In this document: positions 12,771 through 54,799 of the stretch, piece after piece
Layout of the letters: every line of letters starts with the position of its first letter
Position numbering within the stretch: the stretch's first letter is position 1
Assembly: GCA_035480235.1 (NCBI GenBank)
Contig: DATIHX010000008.1
Coordinates: 96,104-160,103, forward strand
Direction: 5' to 3'
DNA: 64,000 bases
DNA from: Candidatus Saccharimonadales bacterium
GTDB taxonomy: Bacteria > Patescibacteriota > UBA1384 > 2-12-FULL-50-11
Program-made: the position numbers and the translations under genes
Notes under the pieces: model-generated
Database searches by the model: none
Told to the model about the DNA's origin: nothing
What the model saw: the letters and a program-made list of their open reading frames with translations, nothing else

Positions 12771-12779
12771 CCACAATTC

Positions 12780-16737: not shown

Positions 16738-16824
16738 ATTTTTAGAGTGTAACAGAGAATATTGTACTATTTTTTTAGAAATGCGTCAACGCGAGAAATA
16801 AGATCTTTTGAAGAATGCTTTTTG

Positions 16825-17008: not shown

Positions 17009-17029
17009 CTCGGGATTTCAAACCCGAGC
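17002..17029 (-). terminator. terminator of the membrane protein gene
   Basis: GCTCGGG-TTTGAAAT-CCCGAGC followed by T6 on the minus strand. Confidence 0.75.
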
Positions 17030-17038
17030 ATTGGGGAA

Positions 17039-17416
17039 CTATCTGGAGATAGAGGGCTTTTTTCGGTCAAACCACTCCACGAGGTTATGTGCCTGGAAGT
17101 ATACGAACCACCCCCAGACGAAATAAGCGGCCAGCAGCATTACCCAATCCAAGAGAAAGATGAGGAAGATTGAGAGAGAAAAGTGCTGGTTGTAGAGCTG
17201 CAGCTTGAGAAAGGCTGCTGCCGTCGCCGAGACGAATCCAGTAGGGTATTGGTACAAGAAAAGTGTATCATTGACCACAACCTTAACTGAAGCAAAGATT
17301 GTGAGGCCGGTCAGGATCAAAAAGCCTAAGACCGCCAGAATAATTAAAAAGAGCGTCATAACTTGCCTCCAAGCAAATGTTGAGAAAAGCTTAGCAAAAA
17401 TTCTCGAGAAAGTCAA
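17039..17416 (-). CDS. hypothetical membrane protein
   Basis: 125 aa with multiple hydrophobic helices. It overlaps the rodA stop. Confidence 0.6.
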   Translation of the reverse strand: MTFSRIFAKLFSTFAWRQVMTLFLIILAVLGFLILTGLTIFASVKVVVNDTLFLYQYPTGFVSATAAAFLKLQLYNQHFSLSIFLIFLLDWVMLLAAYFVWGWFVYFQAHNLVEWFDRKKPSISR

Positions 17417-18528
17417 GAGGCGAAGACGAATTTTTTGTGGCGGATGTGGATGGATTCGAGGATACCGAGGGCGGCGAGGTCGACGATAATGGCAGTGCCG
17501 CCGTAGGACATGAACGGCAATGGGATACCGGTAACGGGCAGTAGCCCGACGTTAATGCCGATATGAACCACTACTTGAAATAAGAGTTTGGCGGCAATAC
17601 CGATGGCCACGAGCTGGCCGAACGGGTCGGTCGACTCTCGGGCAATCGCCAGCACCCGCAAAATTAAGAAGGCGTAGAGGCCGAGCAGGATCATCGAGCC
17701 GACAAAACCGGTGGCTTCAGCGTAGCCGGCGAAGATAAAGTCGGCGTGCGGCACCGGTAAAAAGTTAAGGACCGTTTGCGAGCCTTGGCCGAAACCGCGG
17801 CCGGTCAGCCCGCCCGAACCGACGGCGATCAGGGCCTGGCGGACGTTATAGCCTTGACCCTCTGGGTCGGAAGCGGGGTTGAGAAATGTTGCGACCCGGT
17901 TTTTTTGGTAGGGCTTGAGGTGTCCCCAGGCCAGTGGGACAGCGACCACGAACAGCGCCGCGATCACGGCGAGCGTTCGCCAGTTCGGCTTGGCCGCTAA
18001 AAACAGGACGAGAAAGATCGTTAACAAGCAACCAGCGGTACCGAGGTCGGGCTGGGCCAGAACCAAACCAAAAGAGGCAACGGCCAGTAAAATATATAGA
18101 GTGGCGGCGCGCCAACTAACCTTGCCAATTCGTCCGCTCAAAAACTTGGCTCCAAAAATAATCGCGATCAGCTTGAAAATTTCGGCCGGCTGGACTTGAA
18201 AAAACCCTAGCGTCAGCCAACGGTGGGCGCCAAAAACCTTCAACACAAACGGCAGATGACTGGCCCACATCGGCAAAAGCGGCAACAGTAAAAGTAGGCC
18301 GATAATAAAGAGGGTTGAACTGACCGAGCCGATCGCCCGGTAGTCCGAGAACATAAAAATCGCCATGAAAACCAGGCCGATAAACGCGTATAGCAGCTGG
18401 CTGAGCGCTAACGAGGCGTGATGAGCAGCAAAGGTAATGGTGTAAATAGTGACGATGCCGGTGAGGAGTAACAAGAGCGGGATGAGAAGGGAGAACCAGT
18501 CAATTGGCAAGCTAAAGAGCTTGCGCAT
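17413..18528 (-). CDS. rodA: SEDS family peptidoglycan polymerase (RodA-like)
   Basis: FtsW/RodA/SpoVE family pattern of 10 TM helices, located outside the dcw cluster. Confidence 0.88.
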   Translation of the reverse strand: MRKLFSLPIDWFSLLIPLLLLLTGIVTIYTITFAAHHASLALSQLLYAFIGLVFMAIFMFSDYRAIGSVSSTLFIIGLLLLLPLLPMWASHLPFVLKVFGAHRWLTLGFFQVQPAEIFKLIAIIFGAKFLSGRIGKVSWRAATLYILLAVASFGLVLAQPDLGTAGCLLTIFLVLFLAAKPNWRTLAVIAALFVVAVPLAWGHLKPYQKNRVATFLNPASDPEGQGYNVRQALIAVGSGGLTGRGFGQGSQTVLNFLPVPHADFIFAGYAEATGFVGSMILLGLYAFLILRVLAIARESTDPFGQLVAIGIAAKLLFQVVVHIGINVGLLPVTGIPLPFMSYGGTAIIVDLAALGILESIHIRHKKFVFAS

Positions 18529-18947
18529 TACAGCTCGCCGTCTAAGGCGAGGTTGCCCAATTCGTCGGCCCGTTGGTTTTGCTCGCGACGGACGTGAACA
18601 AAACTCACCAGGTTATCGGCTTGCTCTAGTTTCATTTTTAATTTTTGAATCGCCTCAAAATGCGGCCGGAGCTCAGCGTTTTTCATTTTGTACTCGCCGT
18701 TCAGCTGCTTGACCATTAGCTCCGAGTCGGCAAAACAGGTAATTTCGTCGCTTCGCGGCGCCAGATCGTTCAGTTTAGTTAAGGCCGCCAGCAACGCTTG
18801 ATATTCGGCCTGGTTGTTGGTGGTGGCGGGAATGGTTTCGGCGTGCTCAATTATATCAGCCGCGGGAATTTCGATGACGTAGGCGATGGCTGCTGGGCCG
18901 GGGTTACCACGAGCGGCGCCGTCGGTGTGGATACGAATTTCAGCCAT
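18528..18947 (-). CDS. rnhA: ribonuclease HI
   Basis: IHTDGAARGNPGPAA...QAEY... RNase H fold motifs. Confidence 0.9.
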   Translation of the reverse strand: MAEIRIHTDGAARGNPGPAAIAYVIEIPAADIIEHAETIPATTNNQAEYQALLAALTKLNDLAPRSDEITCFADSELMVKQLNGEYKMKNAELRPHFEAIQKLKMKLEQADNLVSFVHVRREQNQRADELGNLALDGEL

Positions 18948-18984
18948 TGCTGTACTCTAGCAATTTCGAGCAAAACTCACAATC

Positions 18985-20010
18985 CTACGGAGTGACGTTA
19001 CCGGTTCCCCCATAGACATTAAAGTCGTAGATACTAAGTAAAGTGCCGGATTTGCGGTCGACGGTGGCCAACAGCGTCCGTTTGGTGGCGCCGGCGTAAC
19101 CGGTGGCGGTGATTTTGCTGACGGTGGAATCGAAGTTAACGTTGGCGCTGGTGGTGCCGCTGGAGCTGGTGACGGTGGAAAAGGTGGCGCCGACGCTGCC
19201 CAAATTGTAACAACTGGAGCCGACGCCGCTGGTGCCGAGTGGCCGAATGCGCAAAGTGCTCGCCACGCTGCCGCCGCCGGTACCGCCTCGTATCAGCAAA
19301 TTGGTTCCCTGGGCTGCCGAGTCGTAAGTGGGCTGGCTGCCGATTTGGCTAACGACCACTTGTGGCTGGAATTGAGTGCCGCTACCGTTTTGGTTGATTT
19401 GTTGAATCGTCACCGAGCAGCCGCTGGGGTTGCCGGTCCAGCTGAATTGATAGCGAAGATAATAGTCGTTGGTTGAATCGGGAAAACCGGTTAATTCCAA
19501 GCTGTCGTCTTGGGCGATCGGGCTGGCTAATGTCAGAGCGGCGTTGGTGGTTTTGTAGTCGACTTTCAAGTCGTAGTATTGGTGAACTGGGTTGTAGCCG
19601 CTGGTCGAGGTGATGGTAGTGTTATCCTGAACGTTGCCAACGGCACTGCCGGCGGTTAGGTCGTAGCGCTCAGCAGTACTTAAGACAGCCCCGTTGGTGT
19701 CGCGGCGAATGGTGTCGACGTTGCGGCCGAACCTAAAGCGAACCAAGCCGTCTTCGATGCCGGCTTTGGCGGCGTAATAAGCAGCGACGTTATCTTCGTC
19801 GGCCGACGACTGGCCAAACTGCACCAGCGCCAACCGCTGAACGCCGAGGGTTACCGTGACGATGCCGGCCACCACCAGCATAACGAAAATTAGACTACTC
19901 GCCGAGGATCGGCGAGCAGAATTACTGAATCTTCGAATTACTGAATTACTGATTTTTTCCGGATTTAGTAATTTAGTCATTGAGTTATTACGTAATTCTT
20001 TCTTAGTCAT
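18985..20010 (-). CDS. pilin-like/minor pilin protein with an AT-rich-encoded leader
   Basis: The start is taken at the ATG overlapping the upstream stop (ATGA). N-terminus MTKKELRNNSMTKLLNPEKISNSVIRRFSNS followed by a hydrophobic helix. Confidence 0.6.
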   Translation of the reverse strand: MTKKELRNNSMTKLLNPEKISNSVIRRFSNSARRSSASSLIFVMLVVAGIVTVTLGVQRLALVQFGQSSADEDNVAAYYAAKAGIEDGLVRFRFGRNVDTIRRDTNGAVLSTAERYDLTAGSAVGNVQDNTTITSTSGYNPVHQYYDLKVDYKTTNAALTLASPIAQDDSLELTGFPDSTNDYYLRYQFSWTGNPSGCSVTIQQINQNGSGTQFQPQVVVSQIGSQPTYDSAAQGTNLLIRGGTGGGSVASTLRIRPLGTSGVGSSCYNLGSVGATFSTVTSSSGTTSANVNFDSTVSKITATGYAGATKRTLLATVDRKSGTLLSIYDFNVYGGTGNVTP

Positions 20011-20816
20011 ATTGCTCCCGGCACCACCGTGGTATCTAAAGTGTAACAGGTGCCGGCGCCGAGGGTGGCGCAAGTTTGGGCAGCATCGCCGGCCGGTTTC
20101 AGATCGAAGTGGATTTTGACGTACGGCGAAGCCGTGGCGCTTTTGGCAGCGGCGATGTCGAGACCGCTAAAGACCGGCGTCAGGCCGCCAAGGCCGTCGG
20201 CGACGTAGGCGCTGCTCAACAAGTCGGCCGGGGTGGCTGGTGGGCTGGCCGCCGCACACGGCGCGGTTTGGCTGGCGACCACGGGGTTGCCGCCGCCAAG
20301 TGGGGTGCAAACCGACAAGCCGCGCAACTCGTAGACGTAAACGCTTGGCCGGTTATTGAGGGTTTGGGCGGCGTAGAGGCGCCAAACCAAATCCCCTGCC
20401 CCGGTGGCGCCTGGGTACTTCAACAGCAGTTCGGCTTCGTCACAGCCAAAAGCGTTACCCAACCGAACGCCCGTAAAGATGCTAGCCGGCGAGCCGCAGC
20501 TGCTTTTGAGCGAAGCTGGTTGGTCGACGGTATCCACGTAGTGCAAGTCGTTGGTGAGTTGGTCAGTCACCGACCGAGCGGCTTGAACTTGGGCCCGGAC
20601 GACGTTACTTTGGCTGCTAGAGCTGACCGAACGGGCAAAAGCGGCAATGGCCAGAACGATGAGGCCGGAAAAGATCAGCACCGAGACCAGGAGTTCGATG
20701 AGGGTGTAGGCTCGGCGAGAAGCTCTCGCCGAATGACTAAATCTCTGAATTACTGAATTACTGAGTCTATTTAGTAATTTAGTAATTTCGTAATTTCGTA
20801 ATTTTTTTCTGATCAT
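20007..20816 (-). CDS. type IV pilin-like protein (pseudopilin)
   Basis: 36-aa leader, then YTLIELLVSVLIF. ATGA overlap with the upstream gene. Confidence 0.75.
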   Translation of the reverse strand: MIRKKLRNYEITKLLNRLSNSVIQRFSHSARASRRAYTLIELLVSVLIFSGLIVLAIAAFARSVSSSSQSNVVRAQVQAARSVTDQLTNDLHYVDTVDQPASLKSSCGSPASIFTGVRLGNAFGCDEAELLLKYPGATGAGDLVWRLYAAQTLNNRPSVYVYELRGLSVCTPLGGGNPVVASQTAPCAAASPPATPADLLSSAYVADGLGGLTPVFSGLDIAAAKSATASPYVKIHFDLKPAGDAAQTCATLGAGTCYTLDTTVVPGAI

Positions 20817-21640
20817 TGCCCGCTCCCCCCGGTGCCAAAGTTGGCGCCACTGAATCCAGCCGTTTGCTCAAAGCCTTTCCAGTTGGTGAGTAATGTTGCC
20901 ACGTCGGCGACGGTGAAGCCGGTTTTATTGCTTGTAACAACCACCGAGCGAACTTTGACGGCGTTGCCGGCCGGGATGATGGTGGGGCTGTTGGTAGCAA
21001 CGCTGGAGAGTTCGTCGCGATTAAGACTGGCTTGAGTGTTGGTGCAGTAGTTGTTAGCGCTGTCGCAAGGGGCGGTGGTGTGCGAGCGGTCGCCGTCGCT
21101 GGCGATCGCTGAGCCGCCGGCGCTAGTGTTACAGCTATCGGTGGTGGCGTCCCGCCGGGTAACAGCCCCGACCGACTCCAGGCAAATCAGGCGAAAAGCC
21201 GTCAGCGACTGGCTGGTTTTGGCTTCGCTATTGGTGTTGTTAAGGGTAGTAAAATCGATGGTATTGCCCAGACCAGTGGCTTTAGTGAGCGCCCAATTGT
21301 TACCGTTTTGGCTTAACGTGTACCAGCCGTAATTAGCCGGGTCGGTGGCTTCGTTGAGCCAAATTGAGTTATTGCCGTCGTTGTTGCCCGCCAGTAAATT
21401 ATCGTCGCGATGAGCGGCGGTGAGCTCCAACCCCTCGCTGGCCCAACGGTTGAGAATGGTGACATCGGCGTTAACGGCTGTCCCCCGGATAATTGAGTTG
21501 TTGAGGCCAACAATCGCCCCGGAAACGATAAATAAGATACCCCCGGCAATTAGTACTTCCAACAACGTGAAACCCTTCTTAGAATTACTAAATAACTTAA
21601 TTTTAGTAATTTTATTATTTAGTAATTTTCTTATTGCCAT
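20813..21640 (-). CDS. type IV pilin-like protein
   Basis: MAIRKLLNNKITKIKLFSNSKKG then FTLLEVLIAGGILF. Confidence 0.8.
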   Translation of the reverse strand: MAIRKLLNNKITKIKLFSNSKKGFTLLEVLIAGGILFIVSGAIVGLNNSIIRGTAVNADVTILNRWASEGLELTAAHRDDNLLAGNNDGNNSIWLNEATDPANYGWYTLSQNGNNWALTKATGLGNTIDFTTLNNTNSEAKTSQSLTAFRLICLESVGAVTRRDATTDSCNTSAGGSAIASDGDRSHTTAPCDSANNYCTNTQASLNRDELSSVATNSPTIIPAGNAVKVRSVVVTSNKTGFTVADVATLLTNWKGFEQTAGFSGANFGTGGSGQ

Positions 21641-21651
21641 TTAGTCATTAC

Positions 21652-25064: not shown

Positions 25065-25129
25065 TAGAAATCTCCGATTTCTAGAATTACTAAATTACTG
25101 AATTTTTCCGGATTTAGTAATTTAATCAT
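25064..25129 (-). other. 21-codon AT-rich mini-ORF whose stop overlaps the pilC start (TAGTG)
   Basis: MIKLLNPEKFSNLVILEIGDF*. The nucleotide module is shared with the pilin leaders. Confidence 0.4.
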
Positions 25130-25197
25130 TTTGCGAAGTGATAACAGAGCGAATGTAAATGGATAATACATTTAGTAATTTAGTAATTATTTCCTCG

Positions 25198-26265
25198 TTA
25201 GTAGACCATCATCTTGAAGGCTTTCGGGTCGATCGCCCAAGCCAGCGCCGTGTCGATGGTAATCTCGCCGCGACTGACTAATTCGGCTAAGACTTTATCG
25301 AGGGCGATCATCCCTTCAGAGGCCGAGGTCTGAATAATGTTGGGTAGTTGGTGAGTCTTGCCTTCGCGGATGGTGTTACGAACGGCTGAGTTGGCCACCA
25401 TAATTTCGGTGGCCAGCACCCGCCCGCCCTGAACTTTCGGCAACAAACGCTGCGAGACCACGCCCAAAAGGACGTTAGCGAGTTGCATCCGCACTTGCAT
25501 TTGTTGATGCGGCGGGAAAACGTCGATAATTCGGTCGGCGGTTTGGGCGGCCGAGTTGGTGTGTAAAGTAGTGAACACCAGGTGGCCGGTTTCAGCCAGG
25601 GTTAAGGCGGCTTCGATGGTTTCCAAATCGCGCATCTCGCCCACTAAAACCACGTTCGGGTCCTCGCGCAAGGCGCTGCGCAAAGCCCGGCTGAAGGAAT
25701 TGGTATCAACGCCAACTTCTCGCTGAACGACGATCGACTTTTGATGCTCAAAAACGTACTCGATCGGGTCTTCGATGGTAATAATGTGTTCGGCCCGGGT
25801 TTGGTTGATATGCTCCACCAGCGCCGCCAAGGTGGTGGATTTGCCGTGACCGGTTGGGCCGGTAATGATCACAAAACCCTGGCTGGGCTCGGCAAAGCGC
25901 TCGAGAATTGGCGGCACGCCGAGTTGTTCCATCGTTTTAATGGCCACTGGAATCAGCCGCAGCGCCGCCCCGATGTTGCCCTTTTGGTAAAAAGCGTTGG
26001 TTCGGAAGCGCATCTTTTGGTAACCGAATGAAAAATCCAGCTCCCGCCGGGTAGTCAGCCGCTCTGTTTGCTCCGGCGTCATAATGCTGGAGAGTAGCCG
26101 TTCGGCCGTTTCGGCGGTCAGGACGCCTTGGTCGGTCAGCGCCAACAGCCGGCCGTCAACTCGCAAAATCGGTGGCGTCCCCACCGTGATATGTAAATCC
26201 GAAGCGTTTTTCTCGACCGCTAAGTCGAGTAAACTTTTCATCTGGGCAGTCAAAGCTTCAGCCAT
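25198..26265 (-). CDS. pilT: twitching motility ATPase PilT
   Basis: GPTGHGKST Walker A, 355 aa, PilT family. Confidence 0.95.
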   Translation of the reverse strand: MAEALTAQMKSLLDLAVEKNASDLHITVGTPPILRVDGRLLALTDQGVLTAETAERLLSSIMTPEQTERLTTRRELDFSFGYQKMRFRTNAFYQKGNIGAALRLIPVAIKTMEQLGVPPILERFAEPSQGFVIITGPTGHGKSTTLAALVEHINQTRAEHIITIEDPIEYVFEHQKSIVVQREVGVDTNSFSRALRSALREDPNVVLVGEMRDLETIEAALTLAETGHLVFTTLHTNSAAQTADRIIDVFPPHQQMQVRMQLANVLLGVVSQRLLPKVQGGRVLATEIMVANSAVRNTIREGKTHQLPNIIQTSASEGMIALDKVLAELVSRGEITIDTALAWAIDPKAFKMMVY

Positions 26266-29678: not shown

Positions 29679-30292
29679 CGCAATACCCCTAGGTTAATTT
29701 GGCCGGAAATCGAAAAGGTTACTTGCCGGCTGCCGGAAGTAGCGGCGGTGAAGCCATTGGTGGCCAAGGTAACAGTGGAAAACGGCGTCGGCGTTCTAGC
29801 CTGTCCTTGCTGCCAAACCACCAAAGCTTTGGCCAAGCTGTCCAACGAGGCGGTTTTACCGTCGGCTTTAAACTGGCCGGCGTCGGTGATCGACAGGGTG
29901 GTCAGCTGGACGTTTTTGGGCGTCACGGCGTTGAGCTGGCTATAAAATTTCCCCCAGTCAACCTTACTGCTCAAAGCCGAGGCCAAGAGCGTGTTGCCGG
30001 AGAGGACCTGGTTGACTTCGTCGTTGATGGTTTTGTAATTGGCGGTTTGCAGCAAGGTTTGTTTGGCCGCTAAGGTTTTGTTGGCCGAGCTAATCCGGCT
30101 TTTTTGGTACAAATTTAACCCGACCAGCAAAATGATTTGAACCAGCACCACGAAAAAGATGATCGTCCCGAAGGTGTCGATGGTGTAGGTGTTAGCCGTG
30201 ACAGCGGCGATATCTTCCTTGAGCTGCGGTTGTGGGTTGCTGGGCAACCCCGTTTGCGGTTCCAAAATCCCCTCCTTACTTCTTATATTCAC
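29675..30292 (-). CDS. PilN-like pilus assembly protein
   Basis: Single TM helix plus a coiled-coil periplasmic region. The call rests on position. Confidence 0.55.
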   Translation of the reverse strand: MNIRSKEGILEPQTGLPSNPQPQLKEDIAAVTANTYTIDTFGTIIFFVVLVQIILLVGLNLYQKSRISSANKTLAAKQTLLQTANYKTINDEVNQVLSGNTLLASALSSKVDWGKFYSQLNAVTPKNVQLTTLSITDAGQFKADGKTASLDSLAKALVVWQQGQARTPTPFSTVTLATNGFTAATSGSRQVTFSISGQINLGVLR

Positions 30293-30386
30293 TGTACACG
30301 GCGGGCAAAAGAGGTGTCAATGCTTGAAAAATAGACCCGTTCCAGGTATCGTCGAGCTAATTGAACATTACAACTTGGAGGTTGAT

Positions 30387-31085
30387 GTGAACAAACGAGA
30401 ATTAGTTATTGCCATGTGGGCAGCCGGCATTATTCGATTCGCTGGAGAGGAGGAGGAAGGCTTCCGCTGGCAGCTGCACCGCCCTGGTCGGTTTCCGGAG
30501 GCGTCACTATCGCCGATGAAAATCGAATTTCGCTCAGCGGATACCGACAAGGAAAGACACGCTATAGTAGGTCTTCTGAAACTTAAAGCTGGAAAAGTGA
30601 TCGGCGACTACGTACGCCAAGAAAAATTAACGCCTCCCCAGCTGGTCTGCGGTGTGCCGAACGTTGGCATGACCGTAGCGGCCGGGCTTGTTCAGTACTG
30701 GCCATCGGTATCACAACCCCCTAGATTCTTCGCCGGTCTTCGCAAGCTTAACGATGAAATTAGCCTCAACCCACTGGCAAACTGGCCGAACAACGCCGAA
30801 GTTATGTTGGTTGACGACGTTTTGTCACACGCCGACAGTAAACTTCAAGCAATTAATATCTTAAAAGGACGAGCTTCAGTAAAAGCCATTGCCGTACTGG
30901 TTGACTATCAATTAGGCGGGCAGGCGAAGCTGGAAAGCGCTGGGGTGAAGGTGCTGGCCGTTATGCACGCAACAGAACTGTTGAACACGCTCGTGGATGA
31001 CAATCTCATTCCCTGGAGCACCCACAGTCGTTGCCTTCGTTGGTTTGAAGAAATTCGCCAGCTGACAGCTGCCGTCCGTGCTTGA
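30387..31085 (+). CDS. phosphoribosyltransferase (orotate PRTase-like)
   Basis: GTG start 5 nt after GGAGG. PRPP-binding loop VMLVDDVLSHADSKL. Confidence 0.72.
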   Translation: MNKRELVIAMWAAGIIRFAGEEEEGFRWQLHRPGRFPEASLSPMKIEFRSADTDKERHAIVGLLKLKAGKVIGDYVRQEKLTPPQLVCGVPNVGMTVAAGLVQYWPSVSQPPRFFAGLRKLNDEISLNPLANWPNNAEVMLVDDVLSHADSKLQAINILKGRASVKAIAVLVDYQLGGQAKLESAGVKVLAVMHATELLNTLVDDNLIPWSTHSRCLRWFEEIRQLTAAVRA

Positions 31086-31097
31086 TTCCCCACTCTT

Positions 31098-31120
31098 CCC
31101 GGCTCGTCCGGGATTTTTTT
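31098..31120 (+). terminator. intrinsic terminator
   Basis: CCCGG-CTCGT-CCGGG followed by T7. Confidence 0.7.
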
Positions 31121-31544
31121 AAATAAATTTTGTGTATTCAATAAAGTCCGTGTGTTGCATATCGTTTGGGCGGCGAGCGGTTTCTTTATAGCTGAGCTTT
31201 TCATAGAATTTTATGGCTGGCCAACCGTCGCCGGTTACTAGTCGAATCTTGTGCGCCTTATTCTCTACGGCGTACTCTTCAATCTTCGCCATTAGCTCGG
31301 TGCCGATTCCTTGGCCGCGTCTATTATGAGCAACGATTAAGTCGTTGATAGTACAGACACCGCCTTGAATTTTTCCCTGAATGATTCCTAATATTTCACC
31401 GTTATCTTCGGCCGAAAGATAGAATGGACGAGTAGTAAAATCAACATCAGCCGTACCATAATGCTCTTTATCGGCAATTGGCCATTCAATTTGCTCAAAC
31501 CTTTTAAGAGCATCCGATTTTTCTGTAACAAGATTTATATTCAT
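31119..31544 (-). CDS. GNAT family N-acetyltransferase
   Basis: RRGQGIGTELM acetyl-CoA motif. The start is taken at the internal ATG (MNINLV). Confidence 0.85.
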   Translation of the reverse strand: MNINLVTEKSDALKRFEQIEWPIADKEHYGTADVDFTTRPFYLSAEDNGEILGIIQGKIQGGVCTINDLIVAHNRRGQGIGTELMAKIEEYAVENKAHKIRLVTGDGWPAIKFYEKLSYKETARRPNDMQHTDFIEYTKFI

Positions 31545-31728
31545 GCAGCCCTTACACGACGCAATACGCAACCTCTCGCTGGAGTTTGAAGTTGATCTTA
31601 GCCATCTCAATAGTCTAAATAATAAGCTCAAACTTGTAACAGTCAATTCTTTTTCAGCTAAGGGTTTGCTATATTAGCATCGGTTGATACGTTGCCCAGA
31701 AAAGTGGCAGCTAGACCAAGGAAGTATC

Positions 31729-32505
31729 ATGCCAAGAACGTTAACATTAGAGCGCGAGCTCCTTCGCACCTTTAAGAGGTTGGACAAGTGGTCCGACTTC
31801 CTCGACCTATGGCCCCAGGTTGACACCGAAGAGGAGGCAAACAGTCTACTCTTCGTCGGGACTAAAATACTGTTAAGCACCACCCTACTGGACGCAAAAG
31901 CATTTTTGGAGGTAAGCGAACGGGCAGATTTTTATCTAACCATCAGTAATCACTCCAATCGCACATTGGCCACGACTGCCCAGCAACTAATCGTGAAGTA
32001 TCTTCTCCCGCAAGCTCAGACCGAAAACAGCTGGGCCGAATTGCATCTGAAGTTTCTGAAGTTTCTCGAGGAGCCGCTAACGAGCCTCTATGAGCCGCCG
32101 TATCCCCGTTTTGTTCACCAATACTTGTCAGATAGACTACTGAAAGCCACGCTTGGAGCAAAGCCCCGGTTAACGGCTCTAACACCGGTTTCCCCAGAGC
32201 TTCTAGGCCCACTAGTCGCTTGGGGCCTGGTTAGTGAACTTAGCTACTATCAGCTCACCGACTCCCAGAGGAAGCTCCTGGTGGAGTACTTTTCAAAGTA
32301 TCTCAAAGAACGGGAGCTCAGTCCGCTGGGTGCGTTCCAGAATTTTTACCCGAACGCGGGTTGGGATCGGATTAATAATGAGGTCTTGAGACATGGGGTG
32401 GATCAGCGGGTAGCTGAAGCCTTAGTTAGTATTACAGGCCACCAAGACTTTCACGCAGCCGCTCAAGGCCGGGAACCAACAGCGCTCCTCAAGGCCCTTG
32501 CTTAG
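31729..32505 (+). CDS. hypothetical protein
   Basis: ATG preceded by AAGGAAG. I recognise no motif. Confidence 0.6.
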   Translation: MPRTLTLERELLRTFKRLDKWSDFLDLWPQVDTEEEANSLLFVGTKILLSTTLLDAKAFLEVSERADFYLTISNHSNRTLATTAQQLIVKYLLPQAQTENSWAELHLKFLKFLEEPLTSLYEPPYPRFVHQYLSDRLLKATLGAKPRLTALTPVSPELLGPLVAWGLVSELSYYQLTDSQRKLLVEYFSKYLKERELSPLGAFQNFYPNAGWDRINNEVLRHGVDQRVAEALVSITGHQDFHAAAQGREPTALLKALA

Positions 32506-32659
32506 CCTATCTTTCTTCCCCGGAAAATCCGGGGATTTTTATTTCTGCAGGGGTTAGTTGACGCATTTCAAACAGCAGCTATAAATGCCGATGATGATTT
32601 CAAATTAAAAGATTTAGTCACGACTTTCAACTTATCAGGCGATTTATTAGCCACCAGGG

Positions 32660-33040
32660 CTAGCTAGTAATGTACCGACTCCCGGATTTTGAATAAGCTT
32701 CAACTTCGTATTTGTTGTCACTGTAACCTTTAGTTAAAGATTCGATTGTGTAAAGAAACGGGTGGATGAACGGTTCTCTTTCATACTGCTGGACGTGAAT
32801 CAACTCGTGAGCTAAATCTTTTTCATCAGCTGTCGGTCCTAGCTGAACGACACTGCCATTAACTAACGCTCTGATGCCCTTTTGACCCGGCAACCAAGAG
32901 TACCACCAAAAGCTCCTCACCTTAAAAATAAAGGCAAACGGTTTACGTGATACAGCCAAGCTGAGGGGAAGCGACAAAAGCACTAAAACCAAACCCACTA
33001 TAGTCCAAGGCAGATTCAGTATGAAGCTAATTAGTTTCAT
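32660..33040 (-). CDS. membrane-anchored HExxH metallopeptidase-like protein
   Basis: N-terminal TM helix and LAHELIHVQQ motif. Confidence 0.6.
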   Translation of the reverse strand: MKLISFILNLPWTIVGLVLVLLSLPLSLAVSRKPFAFIFKVRSFWWYSWLPGQKGIRALVNGSVVQLGPTADEKDLAHELIHVQQYEREPFIHPFLYTIESLTKGYSDNKYEVEAYSKSGSRYITS

Positions 33041-33692
33041 CGAGCCGGAAGAGTCCGTAAGTCATAAAACCGAAGCCAGTTCCCGGCCCGATGGCCGAAT
33101 TCAGTTCTTTAATTTCAAGGTTATTTTCTTTCGCTAATTCCGGCAGTAACTTTAAATCTGCAAAATCACCCCAAGAAAGATATACTCTTGCCCCCGGCTT
33201 TAGATGACTTTTTAACTCACGGAAAAATCGTTTAGTTGCTTGGTTGTTTTCGTCCCAAAAACAGATTTCGGTTTTATTGGATGGTTTTTTAGCCGTAAAA
33301 GGTGGATTGATTGTTATTACGTCGAATTTTTTGTCTTTCACTGGTTCAAATAAATCCCCTTCGATGAACTCGATATTCTTCAGTCCTAATTTCTTTTTAT
33401 TAAAGTTAGCGTTCTTGACCGCTTCTGGATTAAGGTCAACACCAATAACGTGACCCGCTCCGAGCGTGGCTGCTTTTAGGGCAATAACTCCCATTCCAGT
33501 ACACAGGTCAAGCACCTCGTCGCCTTTATAAACCTCCATTACCTCACACATCAATCGACTATCTGAGCCGCCGCCATAGACGTGAGGAAAGATTGTTAGG
33601 TCTAAATCCACCAAGTTCTTATCGTATGGGTCACTTAGTGTACTGATTTTTTTAATTTCTTCCGCCTGACGTTGCAAAGACGCTTTTGTCAT
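33027..33692 (-). CDS. class I SAM-dependent methyltransferase (NPPF type)
   Basis: DLCTGMGVIAL motif I and ITINPPF motif IV. The start ATG overlaps the SET gene stop. Confidence 0.85.
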   Translation of the reverse strand: MTKASLQRQAEEIKKISTLSDPYDKNLVDLDLTIFPHVYGGGSDSRLMCEVMEVYKGDEVLDLCTGMGVIALKAATLGAGHVIGVDLNPEAVKNANFNKKKLGLKNIEFIEGDLFEPVKDKKFDVITINPPFTAKKPSNKTEICFWDENNQATKRFFRELKSHLKPGARVYLSWGDFADLKLLPELAKENNLEIKELNSAIGPGTGFGFMTYGLFRLDETN

Positions 33693-34189
33693 CTCATTTT
33701 TCCTAGGATAAACCAGGCGAAGTTGTTGCCGTATTTTTGTTGGAGCTCCGGCTTTTGCCAATCACGGCCGGTAATATGATGGCGGCACGTGGGGTTGCCA
33801 CAGCTACACTCAAAGTTATCGTCGTTATTAAAAATCGTGGCGTAGTCGACGCTTAACTCTTCACCGGCGTGAATATCCCGTAGAGCCACGCAGGCGATTT
33901 GCCCATTGATAGCCATATTCGGCTCACAGCAGTGGTTGAAGAAAATCATCGACTCTTCGAACTCGTCCTTAGTCAGCGGAGCCATATAAATATCATCGGT
34001 AATTTGAATATGAGAGTGATTAACAATATCCCAATTAGCCTCTAGAGTTGCCCGGTCAATTAGATGGCCATTTTTAACGGCTAATAGCTCACCTTTTTTA
34101 ATAGCCTCTTTTGCAAAAAAACCTCGGCCGCTGATGTGGCTCGGCTTTCCTTTTTCGGTCTTTGGTGAAATCCACGAAGCAACACTCAT
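33689..34189 (-). CDS. SET-domain protein (putative lysine methyltransferase)
   Basis: GRGFFA..., FFNHCCEPN, ELSVDY and post-SET CSCGNPTCR. Confidence 0.85.
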   Translation of the reverse strand: MSVASWISPKTEKGKPSHISGRGFFAKEAIKKGELLAVKNGHLIDRATLEANWDIVNHSHIQITDDIYMAPLTKDEFEESMIFFNHCCEPNMAINGQIACVALRDIHAGEELSVDYATIFNNDDNFECSCGNPTCRHHITGRDWQKPELQQKYGNNFAWFILGKMR

Positions 34190-34260
34190 AGACGTATTTT
34201 ACTCCTGGGATTAGGATTGTCGAGCTATAACTTTTTAATAGAATTGGCTAGTTCGGGGAA

Positions 34261-34977
34261 ATGTTCAATAAATGTTTGGTGGTCAAGGGCGAGCGTAAAC
34301 ACGATATGACCAAGTACGATTCTGAGTGGTTCACGCTCAAAAAGATAGTTAAATGCAAAAAGTGTGGTCGAGCCGTTTCCTCTTATTGGGGTCGCAAGAA
34401 CATCTACCTCCGCTGTAGCGGCTCAGGCCAGAATAGCTGTGGCAACCCAAATACCGCCGAATCGCTCGTCATTGGCCCGATTATCGATGATATCGCTCAA
34501 GCTCAAGTACCCGAGAATCTTATCCCAAAAGTGATTGCTGAACTAAAGAATCGGCACGAAAACCAGCAGCTCTATTTCACGCAAAATATCGAGCAAACCA
34601 GGAAAGAGTACGACGGAATCAAGGAAAAAATGAAAAGAATTTACTACGACCTAATGGACGGTCGTATTACTCCGCAGCTGCACGACGAAATCGCAAATGA
34701 ATTAGAAGGTCGGCAGCAGATTCTTAACGACCGGCTCAAAAAGCTAACGAGTGATAACAAAAGCTTCCAAGTAACCGCTTCTTACCTGTTAGACCTCGCC
34801 CAGCGAGCTTCTGAGCTTTTCAAATGTTCGAATTACGAGCTTAGACACAAGCTTCTGAGTTACATGCTTTCGAACATCGAATTAGAGGACAAAAAGCTCT
34901 CGTATGTGCTCAACGACCCCTTTAAAACCATCATCGAGCAAAAGAAAAAGGCCCAAGCTGGACCTAATTCTACTATT
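34261..34977 (+). pseudogene. C-terminal fragment of a large serine recombinase (zinc ribbon plus coiled coil, no catalytic domain)
   Basis: CKKCG...LRCSG...CGN zinc-ribbon pattern and coiled coil. The resolvase N-terminus is missing. The ORF tail reads through the antisense of tRNA-Trp. Confidence 0.6.
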
Positions 34978-35051
34978 TGGCAGGGACGGGGAGAATCGAA
35001 CTCCCAGTTCGGGTTTTGGAGACCCGTGGTTTACCATTAACCGACGTCCCT
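34978..35051 (-). tRNA. tRNA-Trp (CCA)
   Basis: Folded by hand: acceptor AGGGACG/CGTCCCT, anticodon loop CTCCAAA, T-arm GGGAG-TTCGATT-CTCCC, CCA encoded. Confidence 0.92.
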
Positions 35052-38428: not shown

Positions 38429-38457
38429 TTGACGGCTAGGGCGGCGTTTGGTATCAT
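38429..38457 (+). promoter_or_regulatory. promoter giving a leaderless or near-leaderless transcript
   Basis: TTGACG, 17 nt, TATCAT. The ATG lies 8 nt after the -10. Confidence 0.6.
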
Positions 38458-38465
38458 ATACCTAC

Positions 38466-38750
38466 ATGCCTTTTGAAGACAAAACCCTCAAGTGCAAAGA
38501 GTGCGGCCAAGATTTTATATGGACGGCCGGCGAGCAGCAATTTTTTGCCGACAAAGGTTTTACTAATAAGCCGACCCGCTGCAAAGACTGCCGCAAGATG
38601 AACCGCCAAAAAGTGGAAGCGGAATACTACAAAATTACCTGTTCTGATTGCGGCCAGATCGGCGAGGCGATGTTTAAGCCGAAAGATCCAGATGCCAAGA
38701 TTTATTGCAAAAACTGCTTCGAAACCCGCTTTTTGACGAAGGCAGCCTAG
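38466..38750 (+). CDS. double zinc-ribbon protein
   Basis: CKECG...CKDC and CSDCG...CKNC. Confidence 0.75.
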   Translation: MPFEDKTLKCKECGQDFIWTAGEQQFFADKGFTNKPTRCKDCRKMNRQKVEAEYYKITCSDCGQIGEAMFKPKDPDAKIYCKNCFETRFLTKAA

Positions 38751-38780
38751 GCTGCAGAACTATTTTTTATTTACTGTCTT

Positions 38781-38971
38781 ATGTGGCTAGCGCCACTGAC
38801 TATTATTTGAGGGTGAGGGGGCTAATTTGCTAAGCCGCCCCCTACACCCTCAAACTCCCTACCCCCGCAAGCTTCCTTTGCGGGGCAGTGGTGCAAGCTG
38901 ATGGCTGTCAACCGGCAACTGGCACTGTTTCCTCCATCAGCTTGAAGAACTATTTTATCGGCGGCAAAAAA
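38781..38971 (+). ncRNA. structured intergenic repeat family, copy C
   Basis: See findings. Confidence 0.6.
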
Positions 38972-38984
38972 TTGGGGAAAAGCA

Positions 38985-39013
38985 TTGACAATTAGTTCGA
39001 AATATGCTATAGT
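38985..39013 (+). promoter_or_regulatory. consensus extended -10 promoter
   Basis: TTGACA, 17 nt, (TGC)TATAGT. Confidence 0.72.
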
Positions 39014-39037
39014 TTCTCGGTGTGACGCAACACAAAT

Positions 39038-39295
39038 ATGATTATGCGCACACCACTAAACGGCCTTCGGCCGCCAACAGCATTGCCGCAAGGCATTACT
39101 ATCGTCAACGTTCAGGTACTTTGGGCGACGGGAATACCTGTCTTTGTAAGCCTACCAGCTGGTGTTGAACTAGCTAGTCAGGACTTCATTGGTGGTGTTA
39201 TCCGTTTACCTAAAGGCTCTTACTACTGGAGCTGGCAACTTACCATCTGGGTAGAGTGTCTAACCGAAGTAGTCAGGAGCGGCACTTGGATATGA
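39038..39295 (+). CDS. hypothetical small protein
   Basis: 85-aa ORF lying between a consensus promoter and a terminator. Confidence 0.6.
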   Translation: MIMRTPLNGLRPPTALPQGITIVNVQVLWATGIPVFVSLPAGVELASQDFIGGVIRLPKGSYYWSWQLTIWVECLTEVVRSGTWI

Positions 39296-39299
39296 ATTC

Positions 39300-39328
39300 T
39301 TTGCTCGCCTTCCCAGGCGAGCTTTTTC
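39300..39328. terminator. bidirectional terminator
   Basis: GCTCGCC-TTCCCAG-GCGAGC followed by T5. Confidence 0.75.
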
Positions 39329-39562
39329 TTACGCGGATTTGGCGGGAGTTGAAGTAGCGGCAGCGGGGACGCGGGCGGTTTTGGAGTTCAGGCCGGCGGC
39401 TTTGAGAGTCCGGCGGCAACGGGAACAGATATACAAACCGTTCCACTTTTGAAGGTTTGGCCGCATCAGCCGCTTGGTTTTATGCAGCGACTTGGGGCGG
39501 TTGTTGGCGGATACGGCAGTTTTACCGCAGAGCGCACAAAATGTATTTTTCGAAACTTCCAT
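39329..39562 (-). CDS. rpmB: 50S ribosomal protein L28
   Basis: CALCGK...NNRPKSLHKTKRLMRPNLQ pattern. Confidence 0.88.
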   Translation of the reverse strand: MEVSKNTFCALCGKTAVSANNRPKSLHKTKRLMRPNLQKWNGLYICSRCRRTLKAAGLNSKTARVPAAATSTPAKSA

Positions 39563-44061: not shown

Positions 44062-45666
44062 CTAAGTGCTTTTTTCTTTGACCATCTTGCTCGGCGCAGA
44101 AATCCCCATCAACTCCAGCGTTCGCTTGACGGTAATACTCGCTGCTTTCAAAATTGCTAAGCGGGATTGAGCGATTTCCGCTGGTTCGCCCAGCACCCGG
44201 AGCTTCTCGTAAAACGTGTGAACGTCGGTGGCCAAAGCTGTAGCGAAATGGGCCAGTTTGTGAACTTCCAAACTTCCGCTGAGTTCGGCCACCAAATCCG
44301 GAAATTGAATAATCCGCAGCAATAACTGCCGCTCGGCTGGCTGCGACAAAACGATTTTTTCCGGCAACTCAAACTCGTTTTCCTTGGAAAATTCCCGAAA
44401 GATCGAGGAAATCCGGGCGTAGGCGTATTGAATATAAAACACCGGATTTTGGCTGGAACTCGACTTGGCGATATCAAAATTAAAATCGAGATGGCTATCA
44501 ACCGAGCGTGACAGGAAAAAGAACCGGGCGACGTCAGCACCGACTTCATCCAACACTTCATCCAACGCCACGTAATTGCCGGCTCGTTTACTCATCTTCA
44601 CTTCTTTGCCTTTTTCAAACAGCCGAACAATTTGGGTGATCACCCAATCGAGCTGGCCGCCCCAGGTGTAATGATCACGGAGCACCCCTTCAATAACCAT
44701 GTTCATTTGACGAGTGTACTGGAAGTGGTCAGCGCCGCCGACCCAAATCAACCGGTGATAACCACGTTGGATTTTGTAGCTATGATAAGCGATGTCGTTC
44801 GCAAAGTACGTCGGCAAGCCGTCGGAACGGACCAAAACCCGGTCTTCCGAGTCGCCAAAACGAGTGGTCGAGAGCCAAGTGGCGCCGTCAGCGTCGTAGG
44901 TGAGGCCGCGCAGCTTCAATAAATCCATCGTTTTTTTATAAACGCCGGTTTGATGCAACGATTTTTCCGAGAAAAACTGATGGAAATTAATCCCTAACTG
45001 ACGCAAAACCGGCTTAATCATCGTTTCCATGATAATCACCACCGCCTCTTCGCCGGCGTCGCGATCGGTTTTAGCCTTAATTCGGCTCCGGAGCTCGTCG
45101 ACGTACGGACCGCTATATTGTTTGGCTGGATCGTCGCCGTGCAAAACCGAGTGGCCCAGGTGATCGACTTGGGTGCCGGTATCGTTCAAGTAGAACTCCC
45201 GCATCACCGTACAGCCGTAGAGCTCGAGGACCCGGGCGATCGCTTCGCCCACAAAGGCGCCGCGACCGTTAGCCAGCGTTAATGGCCCGGTTGGGTTAGC
45301 CGAAACATATTCCAACAAAACCCGGGTTTCTTTGCCGGCATCGCTTTTGCCGAAATTGTCGGGCGATTTCAATATTGCCGCAACAGTAGTGGCCAAATAA
45401 TCGTCGGTGACGGTGAAATTAATAAAACCGGGCGTGGCGACGTTAACCGAGCGAAAACTCTGATGAGCCGTTAACTCGGCGACAATTTTTTGAGCCAGGG
45501 CCACCGGGGCCTGGCCGGCCGGCTCGGCGCCGACCAAAGCGACGTTAGTGGAAAAATCGCCGAAAATTGGTTTTTTCGCCGGCTCGATAGCAAAAACCGG
45601 TGGCTCGGCTTGAACCACTTTTTTATAAGCCTGACGAATATGTTCGCGCAGTTCGCCTAAAACCAT
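44062..45666 (-). CDS. argS: arginyl-tRNA synthetase
   Basis: SANPTGPL (HIGH-equivalent), MSKRAG and a DALR anticodon-binding C-terminus. Confidence 0.95.
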   Translation of the reverse strand: MVLGELREHIRQAYKKVVQAEPPVFAIEPAKKPIFGDFSTNVALVGAEPAGQAPVALAQKIVAELTAHQSFRSVNVATPGFINFTVTDDYLATTVAAILKSPDNFGKSDAGKETRVLLEYVSANPTGPLTLANGRGAFVGEAIARVLELYGCTVMREFYLNDTGTQVDHLGHSVLHGDDPAKQYSGPYVDELRSRIKAKTDRDAGEEAVVIIMETMIKPVLRQLGINFHQFFSEKSLHQTGVYKKTMDLLKLRGLTYDADGATWLSTTRFGDSEDRVLVRSDGLPTYFANDIAYHSYKIQRGYHRLIWVGGADHFQYTRQMNMVIEGVLRDHYTWGGQLDWVITQIVRLFEKGKEVKMSKRAGNYVALDEVLDEVGADVARFFFLSRSVDSHLDFNFDIAKSSSSQNPVFYIQYAYARISSIFREFSKENEFELPEKIVLSQPAERQLLLRIIQFPDLVAELSGSLEVHKLAHFATALATDVHTFYEKLRVLGEPAEIAQSRLAILKAASITVKRTLELMGISAPSKMVKEKST

Positions 45667-45667
45667 A

Positions 45668-45733
45668 TCAATAAAGAATTATTAAATTACTGAATTTTTG
45701 AATTACAAAATTAGAATTGAGTAATTTAGTCAT
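45668..45733 (-). other. 21-codon AT-rich mini-ORF ending 1 nt before the argS ATG
   Basis: MTKLLNSNFVIQKFSNLIILY*. The module is shared with the pilin leaders. Confidence 0.4.
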
Positions 45734-45822
45734 TGAGTTATTTAGTAATTTGGCCAGGCGGAATTGATCGTACCGACTAAACAACAACCCCAGTATATTC
45801 TTCACTTAGCCAATCAGCAACA

Positions 45823-50886: not shown

Positions 50887-51159
50887 ATGCGCATGCTTAA
50901 CTTCGTCCTAATCTTGATTGTTTGCCAGCTTGCTTTGGCTATTTACTCCTTCCTGGAGGGAAAATGGGGCAAGAAAAACTCCTCCAAGCTACTCCTTGCT
51001 GGAGTAACGACTATGACTACCTATCTTTCGTTTCTGTTGCTAGCACCACTGCTGAAGGATAATCTGTCACCCTATCTTGTGGGAAGCAGCATCTCTTTGT
51101 TTGTCTGTTTGCTCAGCTATTACTGGGGCTTAGTCAGCTCTCGTAACAATGCCGCCTAG
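50887..51159 (+). CDS. small membrane protein
   Basis: 90 aa with three hydrophobic helices. Confidence 0.55.
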   Translation: MRMLNFVLILIVCQLALAIYSFLEGKWGKKNSSKLLLAGVTTMTTYLSFLLLAPLLKDNLSPYLVGSSISLFVCLLSYYWGLVSSRNNAA

Positions 51160-51163: not shown

Positions 51164-51187
51164 GCCGCGCGCCAGCGCGGCTTTTTT
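51164..51187 (+). terminator. intrinsic terminator
   Basis: GCCGCGC-GCCA-GCGCGGC followed by T6. Confidence 0.8.
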
Positions 51188-51191
51188 GATT

Positions 51192-51383
51192 CTTTTTGCC
51201 GTCAATACAATAGTTCCTAAAACCGGAGGAGGAAACAGTGCCAGTTGCCGGTTGACAGCCGGAGGTTTTCTCCTTGTTCCCGACCAGGGAAGCGTGCCGG
51301 GGTACGGGGGTTTGGGGGCCTAGGGGGCGGCGTCGCAATAAGCCCCCTGGCCCCCAAATAATAGTAAGTGGCGCTAGCCACAT
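51192..51383 (-). ncRNA. structured intergenic repeat family, copy D
   Basis: Inverted orientation. It begins 10 nt after the radA stop. Confidence 0.6.
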
Positions 51384-51393
51384 AAAATGGTGA

Positions 51394-52707
51394 TTACTTA
51401 ATCGTAAATAATTTCGGCAGATCGCGGATCGAGTTGAATTTTGTCGCGACGGTGTAACCGAGCCGTTTAGCTTCTTTGGCCCGGCGCTCGGCGCCAAAGG
51501 CGGCTCGGACTTCGCCGAGCAAACCGACCTCACCAAAAATCACCAACTTCGGCGGTAAGGTTTTTTTATTTAAGCCGGAGACGCAGGCGGCACAGACGGC
51601 CACATCAACGCCGGGATCTTTCAGCGTAAAGCCGCCAACCACATTCACATAAACATCGTAGGAGCTAAAAGCGGCGCCAAGACGATTTTCCAAAACCGCC
51701 AGCAGTAGCGTTAAACGATTAGCATCGATCCCCTGGGCTGTTCGTTTCGGGTAACCGAAACTGGTTTTCGTCACCAGCGCCTGAATCTCTACCACAAACG
51801 CTCGGCTTCCTTCCATCGTCATCGTCAGCGCTCGGCCGGGCACGTCTTCCGTTAGAAGCCCGGCAAAAATCCGGCCTGGGTCGGCCACTACTTCAAAGCC
51901 GGTTTCGCCGAGCTGCCAAATACCGACTTCTTCGGTCGAACCAAACCGGTTTTTATCGGGCCGAAGCACGCGCAGGCCGGTCCGGCGTTCGCCTTCCAGA
52001 TACAAAACCACATCGACTAAATGCTCCAAAACTCGTGGCCCGGCCATCACCCCTTCTTTGGTCACGTGGCCGACCAACAAAATTGCGACGCCGGTCAGTT
52101 TGGCGAGTTGCTGGAAGCGCCAGCCGTTATCGCGCACTTGGGTGAGCGACCCGGGTGCGCCTGGTAAGGCGTCGTCGTAAATAGTTTGGATAGAATCGAT
52201 CACCACCAGTGCCGGTTTTTCGTTTTTAATGGCCGCGATAATTTTATTGATGTTGCGTTCAGGGCTAAGGCGGAGTTTGGTTTTATTCAGACCCAGGCGG
52301 GTTGAGCGCAAGTGAATTTGCTCCAACGATTCTTCAGCCGAAAAATAGAGCGAATTTGGGACGCTGGCGGCCAGTTGTAAAAGCAGCGTACTTTTACCGA
52401 CGCCCGGGTTGCCAGCGAGTAACATAATCGAGCCCGGCACAATGCCGGGGTCGTCCCCGCCTAACACTCGGTCGAATTCGGCCAGCCCGCTTTGAATGCG
52501 TAAGTGTTTGGCAACGGTAATTTGGCTAATTTCCGTCAGCTCAGCTGGGTCACTATTAACGGCGACGCCGCCCCGGCCAGTGACAGTCGGTTCGATCGCC
52601 TCTTCCACGATCGTATTCCACTCACCACAGACCGGGCATTTGCCGGCCCACGAACCAAAATGCGACCCGCAGCTTTCGCAAACAAAACTTTGTTTCGGCT
52701 TGGCCAT
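51394..52707 (-). CDS. radA: DNA repair protein RadA/Sms
   Basis: C4 zinc finger, GNPGVGKST, KNRFG and a Lon-like C-terminal domain. Confidence 0.95.
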   Translation of the reverse strand: MAKPKQSFVCESCGSHFGSWAGKCPVCGEWNTIVEEAIEPTVTGRGGVAVNSDPAELTEISQITVAKHLRIQSGLAEFDRVLGGDDPGIVPGSIMLLAGNPGVGKSTLLLQLAASVPNSLYFSAEESLEQIHLRSTRLGLNKTKLRLSPERNINKIIAAIKNEKPALVVIDSIQTIYDDALPGAPGSLTQVRDNGWRFQQLAKLTGVAILLVGHVTKEGVMAGPRVLEHLVDVVLYLEGERRTGLRVLRPDKNRFGSTEEVGIWQLGETGFEVVADPGRIFAGLLTEDVPGRALTMTMEGSRAFVVEIQALVTKTSFGYPKRTAQGIDANRLTLLLAVLENRLGAAFSSYDVYVNVVGGFTLKDPGVDVAVCAACVSGLNKKTLPPKLVIFGEVGLLGEVRAAFGAERRAKEAKRLGYTVATKFNSIRDLPKLFTIK

Positions 52708-54759: not shown

Positions 54760-54799
54760 CACGTACCCTTGATATATTATAATATATCAAGGGTACGTG
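54760..54799. repeat. 40-nt perfect palindrome upstream of recJ
   Basis: CACGTACCCTTGATATATTATAATATATCAAGGGTACGTG. The inner 24 nt are identical to 8252-8275. Confidence 0.92.

Follow-up and report, generated by a model that had tools for sequence, protein, structure and literature searches.

The DNA between a zinc-ribbon gene and rpmB in the 64-kb stretch analysed here (the window) contains one copy, termed copy C, of a previously undescribed, hairpin-rich interspersed repeat of ~190 nt. Four copies of this family are present in the window (a density of ~1 per 16 kb), one of them on the minus strand. The family has a covariation-supported structure without a counterpart in Rfam, it appears to have been caught spreading by the comparison of species, and it adjoins hypervariable small-gene slots in which the expression signals are conserved and the open reading frames (ORFs) are replaced. 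With about even confidence, copy C is regarded here as a member of a non-autonomous, REP/BOX-like family of structured interspersed repeats, which would act as a 3′ untranslated region (3′ UTR) in copies C and D. The genomes of CPR/Patescibacteria are small and tightly packed, and to our knowledge almost nothing is known of their non-coding repeats; a search of the literature on structured repeats in CPR bacteria or Berkelbacteria found nothing relevant.

Copy A (11887-12076, plus strand) lies between the start of topA (11856, minus strand) and a small-gene cassette, and copy B (16820-17009, plus strand) lies between the rplU promoter (16789-16761, minus strand) and a second cassette. Copy C is matched by the covariance model at 38779-38972 on the plus strand, and copy D (51191-51385, minus strand) starts 13 nt after the radA stop codon (51394-51396) on the same strand, with its tail facing cassette D. 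The earlier note had counted three copies, a figure corrected to four by the addition of copy D. Column identity among the four is 70-81% and averages 81% over the unit. Each copy forms four hairpins of mutually different sequence, designated P1, P2, P4 and P6. In copy C, all on the plus strand, these are (i) P1, a short hairpin (38783-38796), (ii) P2, a long GC-rich hairpin with the conserved loop TTGCGAnGC (38809-38851), which is followed by a C-rich linker, (iii) P4, a variable hairpin around GCTTC (38863-38885), and (iv) P6 (38894-38944), which encloses a conserved 29-nt loop (38905-38933). The unit ends in a conserved single-stranded tail (38945-38972, plus strand, in copy C) with the family form GGAACTATTtTAT..CAAAAA. 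Sequence conservation is found in the P2 loop, the P4 loop, the tail and the 29-nt P6 loop, the last of which is invariant within the window (CTGyMAACCGGCAAcTGGCACTGTTTsCT).

Six full copies (the four of the window and one each from the related contigs L040 and L051) and three partial or diverged ones were available for comparison. Among the six full copies, compensatory double changes occur at 19 of 41 pairs, a level that none of 500 shuffles reached, and partner-slid controls gave 3-10. For instance, the arms of P6 read AAAACC/GGTTTT in copies A, B and D, AAGCTGATGG/CCATCAGCTT in copy C and AAAATCTG/CAGATTTT in L051, and the lower stem of P2 changes from GGGTG/CACCC in copy C to GGGCC/GGCCC in copy D. 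Copy C folds with a z-score of -3.9 and its opposite strand with one of -4.2. A covariance-model search of 249 kb (the window and relatives) added no further copies. Terminal inverted repeats were not found, as no inverted pair joins the ends of any copy (copy A alone shows a 7-nt end match, TAGTTCT/AGGAACTA), nor does the unit pair end to end; it forms four separate hairpins instead.

The family did not match known elements in the searches made. Rfam, applied to the whole window at the gathering threshold, returned five tRNAs only and no match to the repeat, and E-value scans of 38600-39100 and 38950-39400 gave sub-threshold noise only. The covariance models for IS605/TnpB- and IscB-associated RNAs, 6S RNA and riboswitches produced no match near the gathering score, and BLAST of the ~580-nt copy C block against phage and plasmid sequences returned nothing. 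Peptide coding by the repeat was rejected because the copies differ by 1-2-nt indels. A sigma-54 promoter in the P6 loop (TGGCAC..TTGC) was likewise rejected, since a spacing of 12 would be expected against the 10 observed, and copies C and D read TTTCC. Apart from the four hairpins, two long-range pairings can be drawn. In copy B, the linker after P1 (16840-16852, GUUUUCA) can pair with 16932-16940, just 5′ of P6, and in copy C part of the 3′ arm of P1 (38792-38800, GCGCCACUG) can pair with 38887-38895, again just 5′ of P6. Such a helix, competing with P1 or P6, may constitute a conformational switch, a suggestion drawn from few copies.

At the copy C locus, the upstream zinc-ribbon gene (38466-38750, plus strand) encodes 94 aa with the Pfam domain zf_Tbcl and ends in a TAG codon at 38748-38750. 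Its promoter (38429-38457, plus strand) has a -10 box that ends 8 nt 5′ of the ATG, so the gene is probably expressed from a leaderless or nearly leaderless mRNA. The stop codon would be spanned by a hairpin, GCAGCC-TA-GGCTGC (38742-38755, plus strand), as read from the sequence; the related contig L044 has a different but equivalent hairpin at the same position (GCGGC..GCCGC) and no 11-mer. Directly 3′ of the stop-codon hairpin lies the first of two 11-mers, AGAACTATTTT (38756-38766, plus strand), which is specific to copy C and falls outside the region shared by the family. Since the model match begins at 38779 and the first hairpin at 38783, the element starts 29-33 nt after the stop, which bears out the earlier description of copy C as lying about 30 nt past the TAG on the same strand. 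The near-consensus promoter described 3′ of copy C was also confirmed, as a sigma-70 promoter with a TG extension (TTGACA-17-TATAGT, 38985-39013, plus strand; 11/12 positions) that has an ortholog in L044, and copy A is likewise followed by a promoter, TTGACT-17-TAGTAT at 12088-12116. From the copy C promoter, the predicted cassette transcript (39020-39328, plus strand) would extend over ORF85 (39038-39295, plus strand) to the terminator that closes the unit (39303-39322, plus strand), giving a promoter-to-terminator RNA of 309 nt. The conserved right-hand neighbour is rpmB, encoding ribosomal protein L28 (39329-39562, minus strand).

The distribution of the family was examined at two depths. 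Scans with exact 19-21-nt core patterns gave chance matches only, on unrelated contigs, both among 185,579 GTDB species representatives (AACCGGCAANTGGCACTGTTT) and among JGI metagenome contigs (CCGGCAANTGGCACTGTTT). Graded relatives, reached via DprA and ArgRS, contained partial copies at both contig ends (L041, 84% DprA identity), one full copy (L040, 75% DprA identity), one diverged copy (L051, 68% DprA identity) and a strongly diverged element-like sequence (L044, 82% ArgRS identity, from the same sample as L041). From the proteins encoded nearby, the window belongs to Candidatus Berkelbacteria / Patescibacteria, and the family appears to be confined to a narrow clade of Berkelbacteria-like CPR bacteria. 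Short-read (Logan) contigs break off within the element, as contigs generally do at multi-copy repeats, at positions 1 and 4525 of L041, where both ends stop in CAACCGGCAAC, and at the end of L002 (1781). Thus, the repeat is a systematic assembly breakpoint in these genomes.

Conserved synteny makes each site directly comparable across relatives. Site B (ftsW / rplU) is occupied in four lineages (the window, L041, L040 and L051) and empty in L049, where 68 nt separate the genes. Site A (dprA / topA) is occupied in the window and L041 and empty in L040, L049 and L051 (22-80 nt), and site C (zinc-ribbon / rpmB) is occupied in the window and L044 and empty in L003, L004, L005 and L046, in which the stops are 0-40 nt apart. 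Site D (PBP / radA) is occupied in the window only and empty in L044, L045, L046, L004 and L005, where the intervals range from an overlap to 39 nt. This pattern suggests stepwise gain, with site B the oldest, followed by A and C, and with D gained only in the source species; nested occupancy of this kind is better accounted for by successive gains than by repeated precise losses. The extra DNA at every occupied site amounts to 565-950 nt and consists of the element and a small gene with promoter, Shine-Dalgarno sequence (ORF85 of slot C apart) and terminator. At site C, the block absent from the empty genomes is 578 nt long and comprises the element, the promoter, ORF85 and the terminator, not the element alone. 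The element of site B in L041 carries a C-type P6 arm, an instance of mosaic copies.

The arrangement of element and cassette is polar in all four copies of the window, with the 5′ end abutting a conserved gene and the 3′ tail facing a lineage-specific cassette. The 5′ neighbours are the topA start (A), the rplU promoter (B), the zinc-ribbon stop (C) and the radA stop (D). The cassettes themselves take either direction. Cassette A (promoter 12088-12116, ORF203 12159-12770, terminator ~12785-12806) and cassette C (promoter, ORF85 and terminator on the plus strand) point away from the tail, and cassette B (terminator 17029-17008, ORF106/125 17039-17416, both minus strand) and cassette D (ORF90 50887-51159, terminator 51164-51181, both plus strand) point towards it. 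No matches to the cassette ORFs were found in Pfam, PHROGs or PADLOC, and no orphan cassette ORF is similar to another. With 7 homologues among 1.84 billion representatives, ORF203 is a genuine, though very rare, protein. Each site has promoter, UTR and terminator sequences of its own, and no shared cassette ends were found between sites.

Comparison of orthologous slots revealed that the expression signals persist, at roughly 85-95% identity across swapped slots, around ORFs that are replaced. In slot A (window 12088-12806 vs L041 3646-4465), the tail, TTGACT promoter, 5′-UTR hairpin and terminator are roughly 90% identical, whereas ORF203 of the window and ORF215 of L041 have no detectable similarity. 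In slot B (window 17010-17440 vs L040 5776-6100), the promoter TTGACT-17-TAAGCT and the T-run/tail are common to both and the ORFs are unrelated (ORF106 in the window, ORF73 in L040). Slot C of the window (38973-39328), set against L044 with its insertion sequence removed, has the promoter in common and unrelated ORFs (ORF85 vs ORF70). The insertion in L044 (16700-19107) is an IS1595-family transposon of ~2.4 kb with a transposase (18189-19052), a passenger ORF (ORF181), 26-nt terminal inverted repeats and an 8-bp target duplication (GCCCAAAT), and it lies between the tail and the cassette promoter. As it has terminal repeats and a target duplication of its own in that position, the possibility that the element is the left end of IS1595 was rejected.

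The promoter at 38985-39013 had been proposed to drive a small orphan ORF. The promoter is supported by its consensus, but the ORF is doubtful. ORF85 has no Shine-Dalgarno (SD) sequence and an in-frame codon score of -0.105 per codon; the remaining cassette and orphan ORFs score +0.09 to +0.23, and the three known genes tested +0.015 (L28) to +0.38 (L21). In addition, the 309-nt slot C RNA has a folding z-score of -4.0 on either strand, and the unit (39020-39328) has no Rfam match and no homologue in relatives. The lack of an SD sequence, the negative codon score and the folding score together indicate that the unit may be non-coding; the transcript of slot C may be a non-coding RNA or a decaying gene.

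Other features of the window were recorded in passing. The block at 30189-35051 contains ORFs without homologues in syntenic relatives (298 aa, 273 aa, 126 aa, a methyltransferase and a SET-like protein) and terminates in a 259-aa fragment, abutting tRNA-Trp, that retains only the zinc-ribbon/coiled-coil portion of a large serine recombinase; the block looks like a decayed integrated island. AT-rich direct repeats with 8-nt units (AATTACTG / ATTTAGTA) occur at gene junctions in a pilin/type-IV-pilus-like region (19916-20010, 20728-20816, 21580-21648, 25065-25201 and 45665-45771). An identical 25-nt perfect palindrome, CTTGATATATTATAATATATCAAGG, is present at two distant loci (8252-8276 and 54767-54791).

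In the consensus scans, neither a promoter on the 5′ side nor an intrinsic terminator at the 3′ end was detected for any copy. Weak -10-like boxes are present on both strands of the copies. The terminator scan, which requires a GC-rich hairpin with a U-run immediately after it, flagged only P1 of copy D (GTGGCTAGCGCCAC + TTACTATTAT) and passed over P1 in copies A, B and L040 as well as the P6 tail. In C and D, the stretch between the upstream gene and the element contains neither a promoter nor a canonical terminator, so the element is probably a 3′ UTR there. Under the preferred reading of a non-autonomous repeat, the element would lack an enzyme of its own and would be copied in trans, or by recombination with or next to cassettes. 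In C and D, transcripts of the upstream gene would include it as their 3′ UTR, and its hairpins, acting in the RNA, could shield the 3′ end of the message or insulate that housekeeping gene from the independently promoted cassette. Several findings count against this proposal. Both strands fold equally well and the counts of G-U and A-C cells (11 vs 17) do not discriminate between them, no canonical terminator signature closes the element, and a protein could recognise the conserved loops and tail in DNA just as well as in RNA. Furthermore, A and B do not lie in a 3′ UTR, and one cis role would therefore not account for all four settings. In the 64-kb window, no gene for a mobilising enzyme was recognised.

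The alternative that survives best, though we consider it unlikely, is that the element is a cis-acting site in DNA. In a REPIN/RAYT-like or attC-like manner, a recombinase or transposase encoded elsewhere would recognise its single-stranded hairpins, and the site would mark or create the places where cassettes are inserted and exchanged. Presence and absence are clean at the four sites, A and D each gained element and cassette together, the tail faces the cassette in every case, and the ORFs are swapped in orthologous slots. The mosaic copy at site B of L041, the covarying stems with fixed loops and tail, as expected for recognition by a protein, and the failure of RNA criteria to settle the strand are all in keeping with it. 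However, the boundaries of the swaps lie at the SD/start and just past the stop, within conserved promoter and terminator sequence, and not at the element tail. A second copy of the tail or core was not found at the far end of any cassette, and the window contains many variable slots without the element, which is therefore not required for variability. The architecture fits neither attC nor REPIN, and Pfam scans of selected window ORFs revealed no integrase, RAYT or HUH gene; the sole recombinase-like piece is the truncated serine-recombinase C-terminus beside tRNA-Trp. That the tail belongs to the target or to the cassette was rejected separately, as the naked tail motif is absent outside elements.

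It is rather improbable that the copies are sibling trans-acting small RNAs (sRNAs) expressed from the strand analysed here, whose C-rich or anti-Shine-Dalgarno motifs (CCUCC, CCCC) would pair with the ribosome-binding sites of targets. A multi-copy unit of ~190 nt with conserved structure and conserved unpaired segments would suit such a role, and CUCCAACCCC and two CCUCC(GG) motifs are found in the linker and P6 internal loop of copies A, B, D and L040. A TATACT box, read by eye, also lies 12 nt upstream of P1 in copy A. Against this, the missing 5′ promoters and 3′ intrinsic terminators contrast with the strongly canonical form of the other promoters here. Copy C has another sequence in place of the 5′ CCUCC motif, L051 has lost both motifs, and stepwise gain beside cassettes is not expected of regulatory sRNA genes.

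A bolder reading, to which only a small chance is given, is that the element is the cis handle of an undescribed system of dispersed gene cassettes in CPR bacteria. Here a ~190-nt site, recognised by an enzyme encoded elsewhere, would be laid between core genes together with a self-expressed small gene, and the site would then hold the slot open for replacement of the ORF. This would explain why slots keep their promoter, 5′ UTR, terminator and element and yet contain unrelated genes.

Transcription of the opposite strand was also considered and is judged very unlikely. In this case the reversed tail would be a -10 box that starts a structured RNA, directed towards topA and rplU in copies A and B. 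In 7 of 8 copies the reversed tail reads TAAAAT, TACAAT or TATAAT, with position 3 of the hexamer the sole variable one, and the tail core ATTnTA is the best conserved motif, even in the diverged L044, L051 and L040. In B, D, L040 and L051 the box follows directly after the terminator of the convergent cassette gene. Furthermore, the minus strand folds more stably in every copy, and its structure conservation index is 0.52 vs 0.46. However, a G/U-rich strand is expected to be the more stable regardless of function. No copy has a -35 box or TG extension (by eye), whereas the recognised promoters here have a near-perfect -35, and the RNA would run antisense to the zinc-ribbon gene in C and to radA in D.

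The 11-nt direct repeat around copy C had been interpreted as a target-site duplication or as insertion into a preferred ACTATTT site, and either would point to mobility. The repeat itself is real, with exactly two occurrences of AGAACTATTTT in 64 kb (38756-38766 and 38946-38956), but the downstream 11-mer (plus strand) lies within the conserved 3′ tail common to all copies. Family homology extends ~20 nt past it, through ATnGnnnnCAAAAA, so the 11-mer cannot be duplicated target DNA. The 45-nt 5′ flank of each copy was compared with the family tails by local alignment against 2000 shuffles. For copy C, the alignment TG[C/A]AGAACTATTTT (13/14), which extends to GCT(T)G[C/A]AGAACTATTTT, was reached by 4 of 2000 shuffles (p ~0.002 per copy), and in the six other testable copies the match was not significant, being reached by 265 to 1206 of 2000. 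The flank repeat of copy C is thus probably non-random, and it is not a property of the family. Empty sites in relatives, which the earlier note had proposed to look for with a single 11-mer, do exist and contain no AGAACTATTTT, and the diverged element-like sequence at the same site in L044 lacks the flanking repeat. A search of the window and relatives with the tail profile found no tail-like motif outside elements, so nothing supports ACTATTT as a favoured target. The upstream 11-mer therefore reads as a look-alike peculiar to copy C, perhaps through microhomology, partial duplication or residual chance, rather than as an insertion scar; on the reading of copy C as a non-autonomous repeat, the match has no explanation beyond microhomology or chance. 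What stands of the mobility claim is that copy C is an insertion relative to relatives; the 11-mer as its scar and the ACTATTT preference do not. A MITE-like element that duplicates an 11-nt target (AGAACTATTTT) or homes to ACTATTT is consequently largely excluded, for while the exact 11-mer flanks the P1-P6 core of copy C in a manner unlikely by chance and relatives have empty sites, the second 11-mer is conserved element sequence with homology reaching ~20 nt further, six other copies show no flank match, terminal inverted repeats are absent, empty sites lack the motif, no naked tail-like targets occur elsewhere, and the inserted blocks of 565-950 nt include cassettes.

If the link between the repeat and the turnover of cassettes is causal, it would offer a mechanism for gene novelty in reduced genomes. 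If it is not, the repeat remains of use as a marker in these metagenome-assembled genomes, whose assembly it interrupts.

Among known systems, the REP/BIME and REPIN elements of enterobacteria and Pseudomonas resemble the present family in being non-coding, extragenic, interspersed and lineage-specific, often just past stop codons, with compensatory changes in their stems and no enzyme of their own, and they can act on mRNA 3′ ends. In contrast, REP and REPIN are palindromes of 20-40 nt or inverted doublets of these, whereas the unit described here is ~190 nt long with four unrelated hairpins, conserved loops and a tail, occurs at ~1 per 16 kb and lies consistently beside a variable cassette. 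A RAYT (HUH) transposase was not found in Pfam scans of selected window ORFs. BOX, RUP, ERIC and Correia-type elements are likewise 100-200 nt long, with several modules, predicted stable RNA structure and mosaic copies; they are co-transcribed with their neighbours, and some adjoin or provide promoters. They differ in having terminal inverted repeats with short (TA-type) duplications or box modules, which are absent here, and they have no sequence or Rfam relationship to this family.

Integron attC sites also present a structure-conserved, sequence-variable element at one end of a small, exchangeable and often orphan gene, in either orientation. However, attC is a single bulged hairpin of 57-141 nt with R″/L″-L′/R′ cores rather than four hairpins over ~190 nt, and attC cassettes are arrayed by intI/attI and are usually promoterless, whereas those described here stand singly between core genes with their own promoter and terminator. 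The exchange of ORFs does not take place at the element, and the scanned window ORFs included no tyrosine recombinase. Sibling sRNAs with C-rich seeds (LhrC, csRNA, RsaE/RoxS) share the several paralogous copies, conserved stem-loops and unpaired C-rich/CCUCC motifs, but here no promoter or terminator of the element's own is detectable, the motifs are not in all copies, and presence and absence follow the pattern of an inserted repeat. The polar association with exchangeable small-gene slots is an unusual, unexplained feature of the family, which by analogy would in its working be most like the structured interspersed repeats of the REP/BIME, ERIC or BOX type.
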